A stretch of 64,000 nucleotides of DNA from an uncultured Desulfurococcales archaeon (GTDB lineage Archaea > Thermoproteota > Thermoprotei_A > EX4484-217-1): positions 58,903 through 122,902 of the forward strand of contig CAZGLL010000001.1 of NCBI GenBank assembly GCA_964526225.1. Reading direction: 5' to 3'. Position 1 is the stretch's first letter. Every line of letters begins with the position of its first letter. The translations under genes and the position numbers were made by a program. Positions 444 through 37,783 of this stretch are shown here, one piece after another. Under the pieces are notes generated by a model that was not told the origin of the DNA, searched no databases, and saw nothing but the letters and a program-made list of their open reading frames with translations.

Positions 444-1343
444 CTAATTATTAGCAACGAATTTAATAACGTATTCGCCTAAACCCACACCTAACGACGA
501 CGCAATTACAGAACACTTAGCTTTAAGCATAAAGACTATGTTTTTTCTTAATTTAAAATCCTTTGAGCCTAAATACTCATAATGAGCCATACCCTTAGCT
601 ATAATTAAATCCGATGAAACTAGGATATTTAATAGTTCAGATTTTATTTCATCTAAGAAAATACTAGAAGCGTCAGTTCCCGTTTCAAGCAACATAACAT
701 TATCTCCGATATTTAAAAATCCTAATTTTAAGGCTTCATTGAAAGTGATATCGTTTTGAAAAGAACCTGACTTAGCTACAACATAAATCCTCATTTTACG
801 GTATTTTTTAGCAATAAATCTTATAAGTTCTCTATCGAAAACAACTTCACCTGCGTTGTCAAGTAAGTAAACTAGTGTTTTCGTTTTATCGAGATATTTA
901 AGGAGCTTCAATTCATCGTTTATTCTGAAAACGGCTTTCTCAAGTTCTTCTAAAATGTTTTCTGCACTAAATTCGTATCCTAACACACCAAAATCTATTG
1001 AATTACCTATGGTTGCGAGTTTTAAGAGGAAAGAGAAGTTGTTTAATTTTTCCTTATCTATGTCCCTTAATATTTTCTCAGCAACTTCATTAGCTATTTT
1101 CTTCTCATTAATGTAAGGGTCATTGTCTCCAACATATTCCTTTAATTTTCTAAAGGATCTCGTAGCAATTTCGGCTATGTTCATGTCATTTGAGGCATAG
1201 TTAGCTATGTCTATAGCCAGTTTGCTTATGAATTTTACTCTATTTCTACGATCGCTGATATATTTTGAAAGCTCCCTTGCCCTAACATGTAAAATACATG
1301 GAATACATTGAGCATCTATTAATACCATGTTTTTATCTCTCAT
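444..1343 (-). CDS. DUF89 family protein (ARMT1-like metal-dependent phosphatase / damage-control family)
   Basis: About 300 aa. N-terminal LIDAQCIPC Cys motif and overall length are typical of archaeal DUF89 proteins. Confidence 0.55.
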   Translation of the reverse strand: MRDKNMVLIDAQCIPCILHVRARELSKYISDRRNRVKFISKLAIDIANYASNDMNIAEIATRSFRKLKEYVGDNDPYINEKKIANEVAEKILRDIDKEKLNNFSFLLKLATIGNSIDFGVLGYEFSAENILEELEKAVFRINDELKLLKYLDKTKTLVYLLDNAGEVVFDRELIRFIAKKYRKMRIYVVAKSGSFQNDITFNEALKLGFLNIGDNVMLLETGTDASSIFLDEIKSELLNILVSSDLIIAKGMAHYEYLGSKDFKLRKNIVFMLKAKCSVIASSLGVGLGEYVIKFVANN

Positions 1344-5906: not shown

Positions 5907-7373
5907 CTAAATTCTTAACTCCCCTTTTTTAACTTTCTCTAGCATTTCTAGGACTATTTTATGAGTTAGTTCAGGATCCGCTTTACCTCTAGTTTTACGC
6001 ATAACCTGTCCTATTAGATAATGTATTGCTCTTTTATTCACTAAAGCATCACAAACAGATTTCTTATGTTCTATGAAGACCTCTAAAACAATTTTCTTGA
6101 TTACCTCTTTATCTGAAATCTTCACGAGGTCCCGTTCTGAAATTATTTCATGTGGAGACTTCCCATTAATTATTATTTCAGGAAGAATGTTCTTCAAAAT
6201 TTTAATGCTTATTACTTTATCATCAAGAAGCTTGAGTAACTCAGCTATATGTTGAGGCTTAGCTTTAATACGGTCGGGTTCGAGTTCTTTCTCATGAACC
6301 CATCTTAGAAAGTCATTTATTAATATGTTTGCTAATTTCTTTGGCTTTCTGCTATAATGTTTTAATGCTTCTTCGAAGAAATCAGCTAGCCATTTACTTG
6401 TAACTAAAACCTGTGCTTCATACTCTGTAAGACCATAGTTCTCTATAAATCTTTTAGCTCTAGCATCAGGTAATTCAGGCATTGATTCACGTATTTTTTC
6501 AATATAATCTTTAGTTATCACTATAGGTGGTATATCTGCTTCAGGGAAGTATCTGTAATCTTGCTCCTCCTCTTTAACTCTAAGAGGAACTGTAACTTTT
6601 CTTAAATCATCCCAGTGTCTTGTTTCGCTTTTAACAATTACCCCTTTGGAAATGGCCTGTTTTTGCCTTACAATCTCATAAGCTAACGCCTTTTCAACAT
6701 CCTTCGGCGATCCAATATTCTTTATTTCAACCCTACTTCCACCCGCTACTGAAATGTTAGCATCAGCTCTCATGGAACCTTCTAATTCACAATTACATAC
6801 ACCTAAATGTTCGAGAATAGATCTAAGCTTATTAAGAAAAGCTCTAGCTTCAGCTGGTGAGGACATGTCAGGCTCTGTTACTATTTCGAGCAATGCTATT
6901 CCTGATCTATTGTAATCAACGAGAGTATATGGGCTAGTGATTATTGATCCTGTAGGATAAACTAGCTTGCCAGGATCTTCCTCAATATTTATCCTTCTAA
7001 TTCTAACGATTTTTTCCTTACCATTAACATTGATTTTTAAGAATCCACCTATAGCTATAGGAGCTCCACTAGCCCTATCGTACTGCGTTATTTGGAAGTT
7101 CTTAGGTAAATCGGGGTAAAAGTAGTGTTTCCTAAAGAAGATTATTTTCTCATTAATTTTAGAGTTTAAAGCCAAAGCCACCATTATAGCATAGTCTATT
7201 GCTTTCCTATTAACAACAGGTAATGCTCCGGGCAAACCTAAACATACTGGGCATACGTGTGTATTTGGCGGTTTACCTCGATAGTCTGATGGACAAGAGC
7301 AAAAGAGCTTTGTTTTTAAAGCTGTAAGTTGTACATGGACTTCAAGTCCTATTTTAACATTTCTTTCCTCCAT
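5907..7373 (-). CDS. gatB: Asp-tRNA(Asn)/Glu-tRNA(Gln) amidotransferase subunit B
   Basis: 488 aa. N-terminus GLEVHVQL...CSCPS is typical of GatB, and the gene is adjacent to gatA and gatC. Confidence 0.9.
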   Translation of the reverse strand: MEERNVKIGLEVHVQLTALKTKLFCSCPSDYRGKPPNTHVCPVCLGLPGALPVVNRKAIDYAIMVALALNSKINEKIIFFRKHYFYPDLPKNFQITQYDRASGAPIAIGGFLKINVNGKEKIVRIRRINIEEDPGKLVYPTGSIITSPYTLVDYNRSGIALLEIVTEPDMSSPAEARAFLNKLRSILEHLGVCNCELEGSMRADANISVAGGSRVEIKNIGSPKDVEKALAYEIVRQKQAISKGVIVKSETRHWDDLRKVTVPLRVKEEEQDYRYFPEADIPPIVITKDYIEKIRESMPELPDARAKRFIENYGLTEYEAQVLVTSKWLADFFEEALKHYSRKPKKLANILINDFLRWVHEKELEPDRIKAKPQHIAELLKLLDDKVISIKILKNILPEIIINGKSPHEIISERDLVKISDKEVIKKIVLEVFIEHKKSVCDALVNKRAIHYLIGQVMRKTRGKADPELTHKIVLEMLEKVKKGELRI

Positions 7374-35038: not shown

Positions 35039-35464
35039 ATGATTATGAATATGAGAAAGTGTAGGAAATCATTAAAGGTAAAAAAGGAAATTCTATATGC
35101 CATATTATGTGAAGCGAAACGAAACTTAATTGAAATATGTGGTTTACTCTTTGGTACGATATCTAAAGGAAGTTTTAATGTTTTAAGCTATGCTTTAATA
35201 AGGAATGTTGAAAATTCCTCTGTAAGCTTCAAAATGGATCCTAGGGAGATGTTTAACGAAATAATCAAGCACAGAAATAAGTCTATGGACATTGTTGGTC
35301 TATTTCATTCACATATGACATCGGTAGCTCCTTCGTCAAAGGATCTTTATTACATGAGATTATGGAATGTCCCATGGCTTATAGTTGATAGGAATGGGAA
35401 CTTTTCAGCCTATCTAATAGAAAATGGTGAGCTATGTTTGGTTGAAACTATTGTTGTTGAGTAG
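35039..35464 (+). CDS. JAB1/MPN/Mov34 (JAMM) metalloprotease
   Basis: JAMM motif E...HSHMTSVAPSSKD. 141 aa. Confidence 0.75.
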   Translation: MIMNMRKCRKSLKVKKEILYAILCEAKRNLIEICGLLFGTISKGSFNVLSYALIRNVENSSVSFKMDPREMFNEIIKHRNKSMDIVGLFHSHMTSVAPSSKDLYYMRLWNVPWLIVDRNGNFSAYLIENGELCLVETIVVE

Positions 35465-36089
35465 TTTTAGGTCTAGGAACTCTTCTTCCATTACCTAAAA
35501 CCCAAAATTCTCCATCACTTCTTCTTTCAAGCTTCCATATAGGTGTTTCATGTTTAACCTTTTCAAGAACTTCTCTTGCAATATCAAATGCTGTTTTTCT
35601 ATCGATAGCTGAAACAAATATGTAAACTGTTGACTCCTTAGGTTTAAGCCTAGATACTTTATGGTATACTCTAACATCTATAACATTAGGTTTCCTAGAA
35701 TACTCCTCGGCTATTTCCTTAAGCTTAGCGTTAGCAAAAGGTTTATAGGCATCATATGATAACTCATAAACTTCAACGTTGCCTTCAACTAATCCTTTAA
35801 CGAAACCTATGAAAACAACAACAGCTCCGCTCCTGATAAATTCAGGGTTCTTCTTCATTTCCTCAATAATGCCATCGACACTAATATCTTCTTCAATTAT
35901 GAAGCCTTCAGGAAATCCTCCAGAAGCAGGAGGAAACAGAAACACTTCATCATTATTCTTAAGTTCCCTATTTTGATCAGCTGGTTCACCATTTACAAGA
36001 ACAATTATAGGTTCTTCAGGTTCTGTTTCATCAATGTAGTTTGCTATTTGAGGATACCTCTTTACCAGCGTTTCTATGAGATCTTTCAC
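35448..36089 (-). CDS. MoaD-MoaE fusion (molybdopterin synthase small and large subunits in one polypeptide)
   Basis: N-terminal beta-grasp ending in FPPASGG (MoaD-like Gly-Gly) is directly followed by a MoaE-like domain (VVVFIGFV...VYHKVSRL...ETPIWKLE). Confidence 0.7.
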   Translation of the reverse strand: MKDLIETLVKRYPQIANYIDETEPEEPIIVLVNGEPADQNRELKNNDEVFLFPPASGGFPEGFIIEEDISVDGIIEEMKKNPEFIRSGAVVVFIGFVKGLVEGNVEVYELSYDAYKPFANAKLKEIAEEYSRKPNVIDVRVYHKVSRLKPKESTVYIFVSAIDRKTAFDIAREVLEKVKHETPIWKLERRSDGEFWVLGNGRRVPRPKTTQQQ

Positions 36090-36184
36090 CTTAGCTCCTT
36101 CAGTAAGTTCGATAGATATTCTTTCTGAACCTACAATGTCTCTATATATGGCAAATAATCTAACATTAACTTTAATACTTATTC

Positions 36185-36400
36185 ACCTCTCGTACCGTAT
36201 CTAGAGGTCTGACCCTTATGGTGGGTCTTCATCCCTCATGGGCTTTCTCTACCCCCGCTTTTCGGAAGCCTGGCTTCACAGCCTTAGCCGCCCGCATCGC
36301 TCCACCAGACTCCCTTGAGCGAAGGTAGAGAGGTTTGGGGAGCTTCACCCTTATCTCTCGACTGGTCATCGCTCGTTCACTCCCCACATCCCACATCTCT
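36185..36400 (-). ncRNA. GC-rich, highly self-complementary non-coding element of unknown identity (candidate structured RNA)
   Basis: About 58% GC island in a roughly 35% GC genome, with no ORF of 60 aa or more in any frame. On the reverse strand there are multiple nested helices, including a GGCU-GUGA-AGCC GNRA hairpin, GACCC-N7-GGGUC, CGCUC-N13-GAGCG and GGGGAG...CUCCCC. The strand call rests on the GNRA loop. Confidence 0.4.
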
Positions 36401-36576
36401 TTCTAGCGTAAAACAAATATAAATTTTACGTAAATATATATAGTGGTGTACTGTTGTGGAGCAATATGTTTTCCACGCCAAGATAAGCAAATGTAGCGGG
36501 AGGAAGCTGTGTATCTATATTCCTAGGGAGATTGAAGATAGGTTAAAACATTTACATGGTCAAGAGGTGGTAGTAG

Positions 36577-37716
36577 TTGTCATTAAACCTGATGCCTAAG
36601 ATAATAGCAGATAAGGAAACACAAGAACAGTTCATGTACATAACAATTAATGGTAGACTAATACCAAAAAGTAATGAAAACTATATGAAATTATGTTTAC
36701 TAGCATACCGTTTCAAACAGGCAGTTAAGCATGGGATAAACCTTGTATTGAGTGATGTACCTCAAAAGCAAGCATACAAGGAATTAGCGAAAATACTACC
36801 AAGTAGCATCTATGGCGAAACGGCATATAAGTATGCAAAGTTATTAGTGGAAGGAGCAAGAGAACAAGTCAATAATGAAGTAATTGTTAATAGAATAAGC
36901 ACAAAGAGGAAATGGATAGCATCAAGAGGGGGAGTAACATGGAGAGGAAACCTAAACATAAAATTGATATCCACAGATAAGGTGCTAGTAAGATATTATG
37001 ATGGTGAGTGGTTAGAATTTAAGGTAAGGTTTGGAGAAAAGTATCTACCGTTAGTTAATGAGTTAATAGAACTCGCTAATCAGAAGAGAACAAGTTATGG
37101 TGCATCTATAAGCTTTAAGAACGGTAAACCATATATTCACGTAGAGCTTCCTTTATGGTTATACCTGAAACACCTTTTAGCACCTAAACCTAACGGTTAT
37201 GGATTGATAGCTGGATTTGATATTAATAGTGATAGGCTTAATGCAGTGATTATTGATAGAGAATGTGAGATTATTGCTTTAAGAACCTTCTGGTATAGTG
37301 AGGCAATATCTCATGGTTTTCCTAGGAATAAAGCTAAATGGATAAGACTTAACGCCTTAGCCAAAGCTTTGAAGTGGTGTAGAAGGATAGGAGTAGACTA
37401 CGTGGTGTTTGAGAACTTGACAAAAATAAAAACTAGGAGGTTTACAAGCATCCCAAATGCTAACCGTAAGATAGCTAAATTCCCTAAGAAACAGCTCCTT
37501 AAAAATAGTATTATTAAAGCACTTAAACTTAGATTCACAGTTATACTGGTAAATCCTAGGGGGACGAGCAGTAGTATAGCACATAAGCAGATTATGAGAG
37601 AAAAAGGATTAGACAAACATGCAACAAGCGCTTACATAATAGCTTATAGAGGATTAAAGACGCTTAAAGAACAAGAACCCTCAATAACCCCCTCAACAAC
37701 ATCCACCATAAACTAA
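36577..37716 (+). CDS. TnpB-like RuvC-fold nuclease (IS200/IS605 OrfB-like) lacking the zinc finger
   Basis: RuvC-I GFDINSDRLNAV, RuvC-II VVFENL, TnpB-like NPRGTSS segment with no CxxC...CxxC, RuvC-III-like DKHATSAYIIAYRGL. Starts on TTG in the ORF track. Confidence 0.65.
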   Translation: MSLNLMPKIIADKETQEQFMYITINGRLIPKSNENYMKLCLLAYRFKQAVKHGINLVLSDVPQKQAYKELAKILPSSIYGETAYKYAKLLVEGAREQVNNEVIVNRISTKRKWIASRGGVTWRGNLNIKLISTDKVLVRYYDGEWLEFKVRFGEKYLPLVNELIELANQKRTSYGASISFKNGKPYIHVELPLWLYLKHLLAPKPNGYGLIAGFDINSDRLNAVIIDRECEIIALRTFWYSEAISHGFPRNKAKWIRLNALAKALKWCRRIGVDYVVFENLTKIKTRRFTSIPNANRKIAKFPKKQLLKNSIIKALKLRFTVILVNPRGTSSSIAHKQIMREKGLDKHATSAYIIAYRGLKTLKEQEPSITPSTTSTIN

Positions 37717-37783
37717 TATTCAATACTAAGAATTCACACTTGTTCTAGAATATGTGTTGCTTTATATTTTGTCTATGTTTAAG

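Follow-up and report, generated by a model that had tools for sequence, protein, structure and literature searches.

Described systems closest to the locus

To our knowledge, every TnpB-family protein characterised so far uses an RNA of its own locus, in which a scaffold extends to the transposon boundary and a 3′ tail serves as the guide. We describe an insertion sequence (IS)-like element in a 64,000-nt stretch of DNA from an uncultured Desulfurococcales archaeon (GenBank assembly GCA_964526225.1, contig CAZGLL010000001.1, positions 58,903 to 122,902 of the forward strand; hereafter the window). The element combines a zinc-finger-less TnpB-like protein, a small open reading frame (ORF) preceding its gene, and a structured RNA encoded upstream on the opposite strand. 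This RNA occupies the extreme end of the element and may be the counterpart of the omega-RNA of canonical TnpB systems.

The element resembles canonical IS200/IS605 elements in being compact (about 1.5 kb), in having no inverted repeats and in lying beside a short specific motif, and its protein is predicted to share the fold of canonical TnpB (ISDra2 and the archaeal SisTnpB1). As in canonical omega-RNAs, or right-end-element RNAs (reRNAs), the conserved scaffold stops where the element does and is oriented towards the flank. The canonical omega-RNA overlaps the 3′ end of tnpB, whereas the RNA described here is a separate gene, upstream and divergent, with a putative promoter of its own. Further departures are the kink-turn (K-turn) modules at the RNA end, the MazE-like gene that precedes tnpB, and a protein without the C4 zinc finger and with His at the RuvC-III position. 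The boundary between scaffold and guide in omega-RNAs has been defined by the end of the conserved scaffold at the element boundary (Nety et al., PMC10278001).

Guide-system RNAs that lie 5′ of the nuclease gene as units of their own are found among IscB/Cas9-type omega-RNAs and Cas12 trans-activating CRISPR RNAs (tracrRNAs), some of the latter on the opposite strand. IscB omega-RNAs, however, are co-oriented with the gene and carry the guide at the 5′ end, whereas the present RNA is divergent and has its variable segment at the 3′ end. The tracrRNAs pair with CRISPR repeats, but no array accompanies the window locus.

The nearest described relatives are the RIIIr-4 TnpB proteins, a clade without the C4 zinc finger and with an Asp-to-His change in RuvC-III; among its members are archaeal loci, termed RHH/MazE-TnpB, where a small AbrB/MazE or RHH gene precedes tnpB (Altae-Tran 2023, PMC10691335). 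These loci are described there as non-mobile and predicted to be active, a toxin-antitoxin function is proposed, and a guide is suggested in a long untranslated 3′ region (PMC10691335). The window protein and its small ORF almost certainly belong to this RHH/MazE-TnpB clade, as judged from shared features: an archaeal, including crenarchaeal, setting, the missing zinc finger, His in RuvC-III and a small upstream AbrB/MazE-type gene, all of which the paper describes. The pairing of such a protein with a small ORF is therefore published and not a novelty of this locus, and part of the RNA is already known as an orphan small RNA (sRNA). Where the clade is described there as having a long untranslated 3′ region, the window element has 27 unstructured nucleotides; where it is described as non-mobile, the present cassette has an empty site and many insertion contexts; and the conserved opposite-strand RNA found upstream here has no mention in the consulted parts of the paper.

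Boundaries of the element

The features of the element, in window coordinates, are the following.

36200 to 36396, minus strand: structured non-coding RNA of about 195 nt, made of hairpin P1, the long hairpin P2 and a 3′ K-turn hairpin; its 3′ end is the end of the insertion
36407 to 36430, no strand: near-palindromic BRE-TATA-BRE box (BRE, TFB recognition element), CGTAAAA-CAAATATAAA-TTTTACG, between the RNA gene and the mazE-like/tnpB operon
36456 to 36599, plus strand: small ORF of 47 aa, weakly MazE/AbrB-like; its end overlaps the start of the tnpB-like gene
36577 to 37716, plus strand: zinc-finger-less TnpB-like RuvC protein (PF27229 SSO2105_N); likely start ATG at 36592, giving 374 aa
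37717 to 37743, plus strand: right end of the insertion, 27 nt beyond the stop codon and with little structure; the junction after 37743 is set by the empty sites
37744 to 37750, no strand: target site TTCTAGA on the glnA side; a second TCTAGA stands at the RNA end, 36200 to 36205

The extent of the element is given by two metagenomic loci, L097 and L100, in which the site is empty. Their MoaD-MoaE proteins are 91% and 81% identical to the one encoded beside the element in the window, glnA directly adjoins the MoaD-MoaE fusion gene (moaDE), and a single TTCTAGA occurs at the position corresponding to the window insertion. In the minus sense the empty site reads ...GCAAAGTATAAAGCGAGACATA-TTCTAGA-TAGGTTATGAGGTGAATTAGC-ATT..., the sequence next to TTCTAGA in L097/L100 being TACGGTACGAGAGGTG, and the occupied window reads ...ACAAAATATAAAGCAACACATA-TTCTAGA-[ACAAGTG ... 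GGGTCAGACC-TCTAGA]-TACGGTACGAGAGGTGAATAAGT-ATT.... Positions 36200–37743 are thus a 1,544-bp insertion at TTCTAGA, and they constitute a complete, discrete IS-like element of the archaeal MazE-TnpB type.

Other copies agree with these ends. BLASTN of the window against them aligned 36198–37750 only, with unrelated flanks, and homology to the other copies of the window's own clade (W clade) ends at 37750; in all clades it ends 24–34 nt after the stop codon of the tnpB-like gene. TCTRGA borders the RNA end in 8 of 8 W-clade loci; for the opposite end the count is 4 of 4. With TCTAGA at both junctions and no terminal inverted repeats, the ends represent either a 6-bp duplication or the target plus a similar element tip. 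Outside the element ends of the Sulfolobales clade (S clade), we found no target motif and no duplication. Right ends of S-clade type (...GTTACGTAAAyGTGTTACAGAC; 82–92% identity) also occur reversed and without a cassette at L003 1126–1162 and L073 4942–5006, both on the minus strand, and these isolated copies may be solo ends or remnants.

Searches with the exact MoaDE and GlnA of the window returned the occupied site only, or short contigs ending inside the element. Four short Logan contigs (L091, L092, L095 and L096) are independent assemblies of one population that break 25–47 nt inside either element end, which points to a repeated or polymorphic element in those samples. Locus L094 was considered as a different element variant at the site and was rejected, being 99.9% identical DNA with a different start call.

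The RNA lies inside the insertion, at its extreme end and reading outward, and the scaffold edge at 36200 coincides with the insertion boundary. Past the RNA 3′ end the sequence is different in each locus, near-identical RNAs included, and the RNA model described below has no match in L097 or L100. These observations decide against one option of an earlier note on this DNA, in which an unrelated housekeeping RNA stood beside an inserted IS, and equally against other host RNAs, whether a housekeeping RNA such as that of RNase P or the signal recognition particle (SRP) or a moaDE leader or riboswitch, for example one sensing molybdenum cofactor (Moco). A leader would suit the co-orientation of the RNA with moaDE, its end 10 nt from the Shine-Dalgarno (SD) sequence, and the minimum-free-energy fold of 36180–36410, which pairs the element tip ACCUCU with the SD sequence AGAGGU. 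The RNA is, however, absent from the relatives with closely similar MoaDE and present in more than 60 loci with unrelated flanks. Rfam 15 was scanned across the whole window at the gathering score, where it gave no match, and across 36000–36700 also at E ≤ 10, where only noise appeared (E ≥ 1.1) and no RNase P, SRP or Moco riboswitch (RF01055) model matched; a search of the window for tRNA and tmRNA found none. The leader was ruled out by the unrelated contexts and the empty sites, and the housekeeping RNA by the lack of an Rfam family and of tRNA or tmRNA together with its absence from those sites. Because the RNA lies within the insertion and is missing where the insertion is missing, both readings are refuted and a host RNA retains practically no probability.

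Structure and conservation of the RNA

The earlier note had pointed to a GC-rich, structured island upstream of the TnpB-like ORF, and composition and folding bear it out. The GC content of 36200–36396 is 56.9%, compared with 35.3% for the window; in 100-nt segments it is 56–61% across 36200–36399 and 26–42% on either side. Folds of both strands were each tested against 200 shuffles. The minus strand of the island reaches −87.7 kcal/mol (z = −4.06, equalled by 0 of 200 shuffles) and the plus strand −62.4 kcal/mol (z = −0.73, equalled by 48 of 200), which places the structure on the reverse strand, as the note had it. The helices it named are all present: GGCU-GUGA-AGCC at 36272–36283, GACCC/GGGUC at 36211–36227, GGGGAG/CUCCCC at 36337–36385 and CUCUACC/GGUAGAG at 36247–36330. 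The canonical position of an omega-RNA, formed here by the last 135 nt of tnpB and the right end (37581–37750, plus strand), folds at −16.2 kcal/mol (z = −0.89) with about 35% GC; since it is unstructured and AT-rich, the upstream RNA is the sole structured RNA of the 1.5-kb unit. The structure divides as follows.

36337 to 36385, minus strand: hairpin P1, GGGGAGU ... GCUCCCC, with an internal loop holding GAUGA / UGAA motifs
36247 to 36330, minus strand: long hairpin P2, CUCUACCUUCGCUC ... AGCGGGGGUAGAG, with the apical GNRA hairpin GGCU-GUGA-AGCC at 36272 to 36283
36204 to 36237, minus strand: 3′ K-turn module, similar to box C plus box D

A covariance model (R1) was built from the RNAs of seven loci, among them S. 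islandicus M.16.27, A. hospitalis W1 and metagenome-assembled genomes (MAGs) of Desulfurococcales. Searched against 89 sources, it gave 70 matches; the window holds one copy, at 36203–36396 on the minus strand (181.5 bits, E = 7e-48). Covariation was assessed in 13 RNAs from the window clade and its sister clade, with 38 consensus pairs, and the controls were alignments with the 3′ partners slid by 1–3 columns and 500 column shuffles. Standard pairs fill 94.9% of pair cells, against 36–55% with slid partners, and compensatory changes support 19 of the 38 pairs, against 1–4 in the slid controls; none of the 500 shuffles matches the observed value. The structured RNA that the earlier note had proposed, on the 5′ side and the opposite strand, is supported.

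Both partners have changed at 5 of the 6 P1 stem pairs when the W and D clades are compared (for instance GGGGAG/CUCCCC against GCUGGG/CCUGGC), and in P2 (helices 2–4) the positions are 88–97% paired, with compensatory change at 12 pairs. One U-G pair is invariant among the 13 RNAs and two more are common; as these would be A-C on the other strand, the RNA fold works on the minus strand only. Seven clade representatives folded at 70 °C show broadly the same three-domain plan, with P1 absent in three.

The claim that the island has no ORF in any frame fails in the literal sense, since a minus-strand ATG ORF of 55 aa lies within it at 36229–36396. Across 15 homologous RNAs, however, the longest stop-free stretches measure 16–61 codons and no frame is kept open, so the region is non-coding; the 55-aa ORF, which is not conserved and has no Pfam match, was discarded as a coding candidate.

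One Rfam family does touch the RNA in other genomes. RF02814, Sso133 (Sulfolobus sRNA133), is a 73-nt model that, in Sulfolobales-clade RNAs, extends from the 3′ strand of P1 through the linker and P2, scoring 97.5 bits on the same strand of L003 against 29.6 on the opposite strand, and 60–90 bits in L002, L073 (twice) and L065. Model R1 ties these RNAs to that of the window as homologues. Its threshold is 44 bits, and it has no match to the window RNA even at E ≤ 10, nor to the RNAs of three other clades. With S-clade homologues at 60–97 bits and the window RNA below threshold, the latter is a distant homologue and not a member of Sso133. About 40% of the RNA falls within the Sso133 model, which leaves out P1 and the K-turn module. 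The literature searched gives no function for Sso133, no link between it and TnpB and no description of the full RNA; its catalogue entry lends indirect support to expression of the RNA family.

The 3′ module runs in the order C-stem GAGG, bulge GAU, GA, hairpin GACCC-ACCAUAA-GGGUC, GA, C-stem CCUC. Of 66 distinct homologous RNAs, 53 show the strict K-turn pattern; among the 13 that do not, 7 are truncated. The C-stem covaries (GAGU/ACUC in 14, GGGG/CCCC in 14, GGGU/ACCC in 12, GAGG/CCUC in 4 and GAGC/GCUC in 3), box C reads GUGAUGA or GGGAUGA across clades, and box D reads CUGA, CCGA or CAGA. From these motifs, L7Ae probably binds the module. The terminal stem with RUGAUGA...CUGA-like tandem G-A pairs, conserved and covarying here, is also that of archaeal K-turn and box C/D ribonucleoproteins (RNPs), so that a hitch-hiking box C/D-type sRNA guiding 2′-O-methylation comes into question. 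In its favour are the box C and box D closed by a stem of 4–5 bp, an internal C′/D′-like pair added in many clades, and a sub-threshold Rfam match to sR43 at 36206–36256 (10.8 bits against a cut-off of 45). The module nevertheless has no 10–12-nt methylation-guide spacers between C and D′ or between C′ and D, but a 4-bp helix or a hairpin in their place; no Rfam C/D family matches at threshold; and the module is the last fifth of a larger conserved RNA in which it is embedded. Lacking guide spacers, it is not a C/D sRNA, and we regard this explanation as highly improbable.

In the S clade the 3′ module (L002 3627–3680 vs L003 3606–3680, minus strand) contains a nearly identical 15-nt perfect palindrome, GUGAYUAWUAGUCAC, with one copy in S. 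islandicus and two in A. hospitalis and most metagenomic S-clade copies; the copy number varies while the RNA is otherwise conserved. At the DNA level these perfect palindromes, one or two near the RNA tip, read GTGACTATTAGTCAC.

Putative promoter box and small ORF

Between the RNA and the protein genes lies the BRE-TATA-BRE box. Nearly all of some 60 distinct loci have a AAAAnTTTATAAA-type box, placed about 25–30 nt before the RNA 5′ end, and its arms change in step among clades (CGTAAA/TTTACG, GCATAAAA/TTTTATGC, AGTAAAG/CTTTACT and CGGAAA/TTTCCG). On the side away from the RNA, copies of the Sulfolobales clade begin the small ORF about 25 nt from this box. The box would be one bidirectional promoter and probably the operator of the dimeric MazE-like protein.

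The small ORF, which the earlier note had overlooked, is conserved and overlaps the start of the tnpB-like gene: the likely ATG at 36592 overlaps the small-ORF stop as ATGCCTAA. It occurs in 52 distinct versions of 47–64 aa, at the same position in every locus examined. Its matches to the Pfam family MazE_antitoxin (PF04014) are weak (3 of 18 members, best E 0.063), and these matches, together with the architecture described in PMC10691335, hint at a MazE-like identity.

A discrete insertion that has a specific target motif and carries the RNA at its tip would also suit a feature of the DNA itself, that is, a structured single-strand end of IS200/IS605 type moved by a Y1 transposase in trans, with transcription incidental; the S-clade palindromes close to the tip point the same way. 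Known IS200/IS605 ends are hairpins of about 20 nt, whereas the present fold has three domains and 190 nt. Read on the other strand, the invariant U-G pair and the two common ones would become A-C mismatches, the BRE/TATA motif is conserved at the correct spacing, the K-turn is an RNA-protein motif, an Rfam sRNA matches part of the family, and no tnpA lies beside any locus inspected. A purely DNA-level role is thus very unlikely. The related option of the earlier note, the left end of a degenerate IS, was right in placing the RNA at an element end; the element is intact, though, and the separate BRE/TATA, the compensatory changes and the G-U pairs speak for an RNA gene.

Distribution and linkage of the cassette

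The divergent RNA, the MazE/AbrB-like ORF (47–54 aa) and the zinc-finger-less TnpB form a cassette found at more than 60 loci with differing flanks, in Sulfolobales, Desulfurococcales and their relatives. S. islandicus M.16.27 (CP001401, about 1.4426 Mb), Acidianus hospitalis W1 and four MAGs of Desulfurococcales each have a GC-rich island at a constant distance before the small ORF, in neighbourhoods that are unrelated. Genome contigs searched with the single protein yielded 6 loci, and metagenomes searched with an alignment yielded 80. The earlier note had looked towards Sulfolobales for relatives, but the nearest genome loci belong to Desulfurococcaceae/Desulfurococcales MAGs.

To the question, also raised there, of whether the RNA travels with the ORF, the answer is clear. 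The loci that contain the TnpB N-terminus and 430 nt or more of DNA before it number 62. In 60 of these the RNA is present on the opposite strand, its 5′ end 160–205 nt (median 188) from the tnpB start. A GC-rich element of visible homology, again with the promoter box and the GGGAUGAACUCGAUGAGC... start, stands in the remaining two; the linkage is obligate. The RNA subtype follows the protein clade. In one subclade the cassette occupies at least 14–15 different contexts, and these many insertion contexts together with the empty site show past mobility of the cassette.

A few extra RNA copies lie close to a complete cassette. L073 contains a solo full-length RNA with promoter box and no adjoining mazE or tnpB (598–784, plus strand) and an extra copy cut by the locus end (5922–6049, minus strand), giving three RNA copies in one 6-kb stretch. 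An extra copy in L076 (273–448, plus strand) is without the central hairpin and looks degenerate.

The TnpB-like protein

The product of 36577–37716 contains the motifs GFDINS, VVFENL, NPRGTSS and GLDKHATSAYIIAYRGL and no CxxC, in agreement with the earlier reading of this ORF; 67 nt separate its stop from that of glnA. It has Cys at residues 40, 230 and 268 only, and no Cys column is conserved in an alignment of 45 homologues, so the loss of the zinc finger is confirmed. The same alignment shows as invariant D215 (GFDxNSDR), E279 (FE[ND]L), and D346 with H348 (GLD-[RK]-H-xASAY). RuvC-III is thus D346-[KR]-H348, in the window D346-K-H348, and by alignment of the motif to DRDxNAA and the clade description (PMC10691335) H348 is read as the canonical Asp position. 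On this reading of the D-K-H motif, with Asp to His rearranged, the statement that all three catalytic acidic residues are retained is positionally inaccurate.

An AlphaFold2 model of the protein (mean predicted local distance difference test, pLDDT, 88.4; predicted template modelling score, pTM, 0.81) was compared with PDB structures by Foldseek. The best matches were Cas12k (7n3o, E = 1.7e-9), Cas12f (8j12) and ISDra2 TnpB (8exa, E = 2.2e-7), with template modelling scores of about 0.45–0.56. The model bears out the TnpB-like RuvC fold proposed earlier, with the WED/REC/RuvC plan of TnpB and Cas12. Sequence profiles see less of this. The NCBIfam TnpB models fall below cut-off (NF040570, 20.3 bits against 100; TIGR01766, 26.2 against 32; TIGR01765, 38.3 against 47.25), a Pfam profile search of 36577–37716 gave no match, and phmmer and profile searches found no sequence-level link to solved TnpB or Cas12 structures.

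At least 210 homologues were found, from Sulfolobales, Desulfurococcales, Acidilobus, Ignisphaera and uncultured Thermoprotei; all 120 among the matches listed carry PF27229 SSO2105_N, the only family that the source database gives for the homologues. No relative was found in IMG/VR or in the GenBank phage records searched. The sole relatives in the plasmid database are hypothetical proteins of three Bacillus paranthracis plasmids of about 300 kb (CP113376.1, CP113366.1 and CP113386.1), which have 24.5% identity over 72% of the query and may be bacterial members of the zinc-finger-less clade.

The tnpB-like frame is broken early in six loci (L007, L018, L019, L027, L041 and L053), with stops after 96–267 codons. 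The RNAs next to these frames score 32–222 bits, at least 115 in five of the six. The breaks may mark pseudogenised nucleases, or sequencing frameshifts, beside a retained RNA.

A candidate guide RNA and its alternatives

Since the RNA is the only structured RNA of the unit and its conserved part ends precisely where the insertion ends, we favour reading it as the equivalent of an omega-RNA, one in which the gene arrangement is inverted and the flank supplies the guide, a proposal that we consider evenly balanced. Two divergent units would start from one BRE-TATA-BRE region, the translationally coupled mazE-like and tnpB genes to the right and the RNA gene of about 195 nt to the left. P1, P2 and the terminal K-turn would form the scaffold for the TnpB-like protein, with L7Ae probably also bound at the K-turns. 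Transcription would then cross the element boundary, and the 3′ tail copied from the host flank would serve as the guide.

36174 to 36199, minus strand: host flank and putative guide, in the moaD-moaE 5′ untranslated region (UTR), directly 3′ of the RNA

Read in the RNA sense, the order would be that of IS200/IS605, namely TTCTAGA, left end, cargo, right-end scaffold and flank guide, with the protein genes alone inverted. As with canonical TnpB, the empty site (TTCTAGA plus flank) would be what the RNP recognises. A dimer of the MazE-like protein, acting at the palindromic box, would probably repress both units. Stated for RIIIr-4 MazE-TnpB elements of hyperthermophilic Thermoprotei at large, that is, with a stand-alone divergent guide-RNA gene, co-regulation through a palindromic box, a K-turn/L7Ae scaffold and a flank guide, the proposal falls slightly short of an even balance. 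Of the three options set out in the earlier note, an RNA partner of the TnpB relative fits best, but the relative cannot be called domesticated, given at least 14–15 contexts and an empty site.

Several points weigh against the guide reading. The sole published proposal for the clade sees it as a toxin-antitoxin system and puts the guide in the 3′ UTR (PMC10691335). The linkage of RNA and protein could be explained by co-inheritance within one mobile unit, with no physical partnership between them. If the 73-nt Sso133 is the mature species, it would contain neither the 3′ module nor a flank tail. The RuvC-III change from Asp to His makes nuclease activity putative. No tnpA is adjacent to the window copy or present in the annotated neighbours inspected, a result that does not extend to TnpA acting in trans from elsewhere in the genomes, which were not searched for it. 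The junctions raise a further difficulty. With TCTAGA at both, a motif resembling a target-adjacent motif (TAM) stands beside the putative target in the occupied site as well, unless the TAM includes the upstream T (TTCTAGA vs CTCTAGA), which would spare that site. A 6-bp duplication of TCTAGA would also fit a true target-site duplication, which would be atypical of IS200/IS605; we know of none made by elements of that family.

An RNA that is not a guide, but a regulatory or structural sRNA of the MazE-TnpB module, is the main rival, though unlikely. Such an RNA might control or sequester a TnpB "toxin", act in trans as a processed sRNA (Sso133), or be an outward transcript that restores the expression of disrupted genes. 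The toxin-antitoxin hypothesis of PMC10691335 agrees with it, as do the central 73 nt catalogued as a stand-alone sRNA in Rfam, the solo RNA with promoter and no mazE/tnpB (for example L073 598–784), and the high-scoring RNAs kept beside interrupted tnpB frames (the six loci named above). The position of the element, which separates the moaDE TATA box from its SD sequence and start so that the RNA promoter reads into moaDE, is a further argument. Promoter rescue is not a general function, however, because the downstream genes of the other copies are unrelated and variously oriented. A non-guide role also leaves unexplained the constant end of the conserved structure at the element boundary and the retention of a full WED/REC/RuvC fold with no other structured RNA in the unit.

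As far as the literature searched goes, the full RNA, its obligate divergent and terminal arrangement in a mobile unit, the shared palindromic promoter motif and the K-turn module are new. The RNA is a concrete candidate partner for a large clade that has no zinc finger and has His in RuvC-III, and the published suggestion for the guide appears to be misplaced. If the omega-RNA reading is correct, omega-RNA biogenesis can be independent of 3′ processing of the tnpB mRNA, a separately promoted opposite-strand RNA being sufficient, and within an IS the omega-RNA can be separated from tnpB and inverted relative to it. This would bear on the origin of separate RNA genes of tracrRNA/CRISPR type from transposon RNAs. 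The orphan Sso133 would then be the core of a TnpB omega-RNA and would gain a genomic context and a candidate function. The K-turn modules suggest that host L7Ae has been recruited into an archaeal transposon RNP. Proteins of 350–380 aa from hosts living at 70–90 °C, with an RNA of about 190 nt and a candidate TAM, are candidate thermostable miniature editors.

The moaDE locus

The gene next to the RNA end of the element is the molybdopterin-synthase gene moaDE.

35448 to 36176, minus strand: MoaD-MoaE fusion gene, ATT start at 36174 to 36176; gene callers start it at GTG 36089

An SD sequence, GAGGTGA, lies at 36183–36189, with the ATT 7 nt beyond. The in-frame N-terminal extension of MoaD, IKVNVRLFAIYRDIVGSERISIELTEGAK, contains no ATG, GTG or TTG and restores the missing N-terminus of MoaD, and ATT-AAA-GTT at the start is conserved in L097 and L100. 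MoaD-MoaE thus appears to begin at a non-canonical ATT. The TATA-like box of moaDE, ACAAAATATAAAGC, is at 37759–37772 (minus sense), so that the element stands between the box and the SD sequence and start; from this arrangement moaDE is probably transcribed by read-through from the RNA promoter.

A JAB/MPN (JAMM) protein is encoded at 35039–35464 on the plus strand, convergent with MoaD-MoaE and overlapping its end, an arrangement kept in L097 and L100. The JAMM and MoaD-MoaE pair looks like a ubiquitin-like modifier pair of SAMP/Urm1 type.

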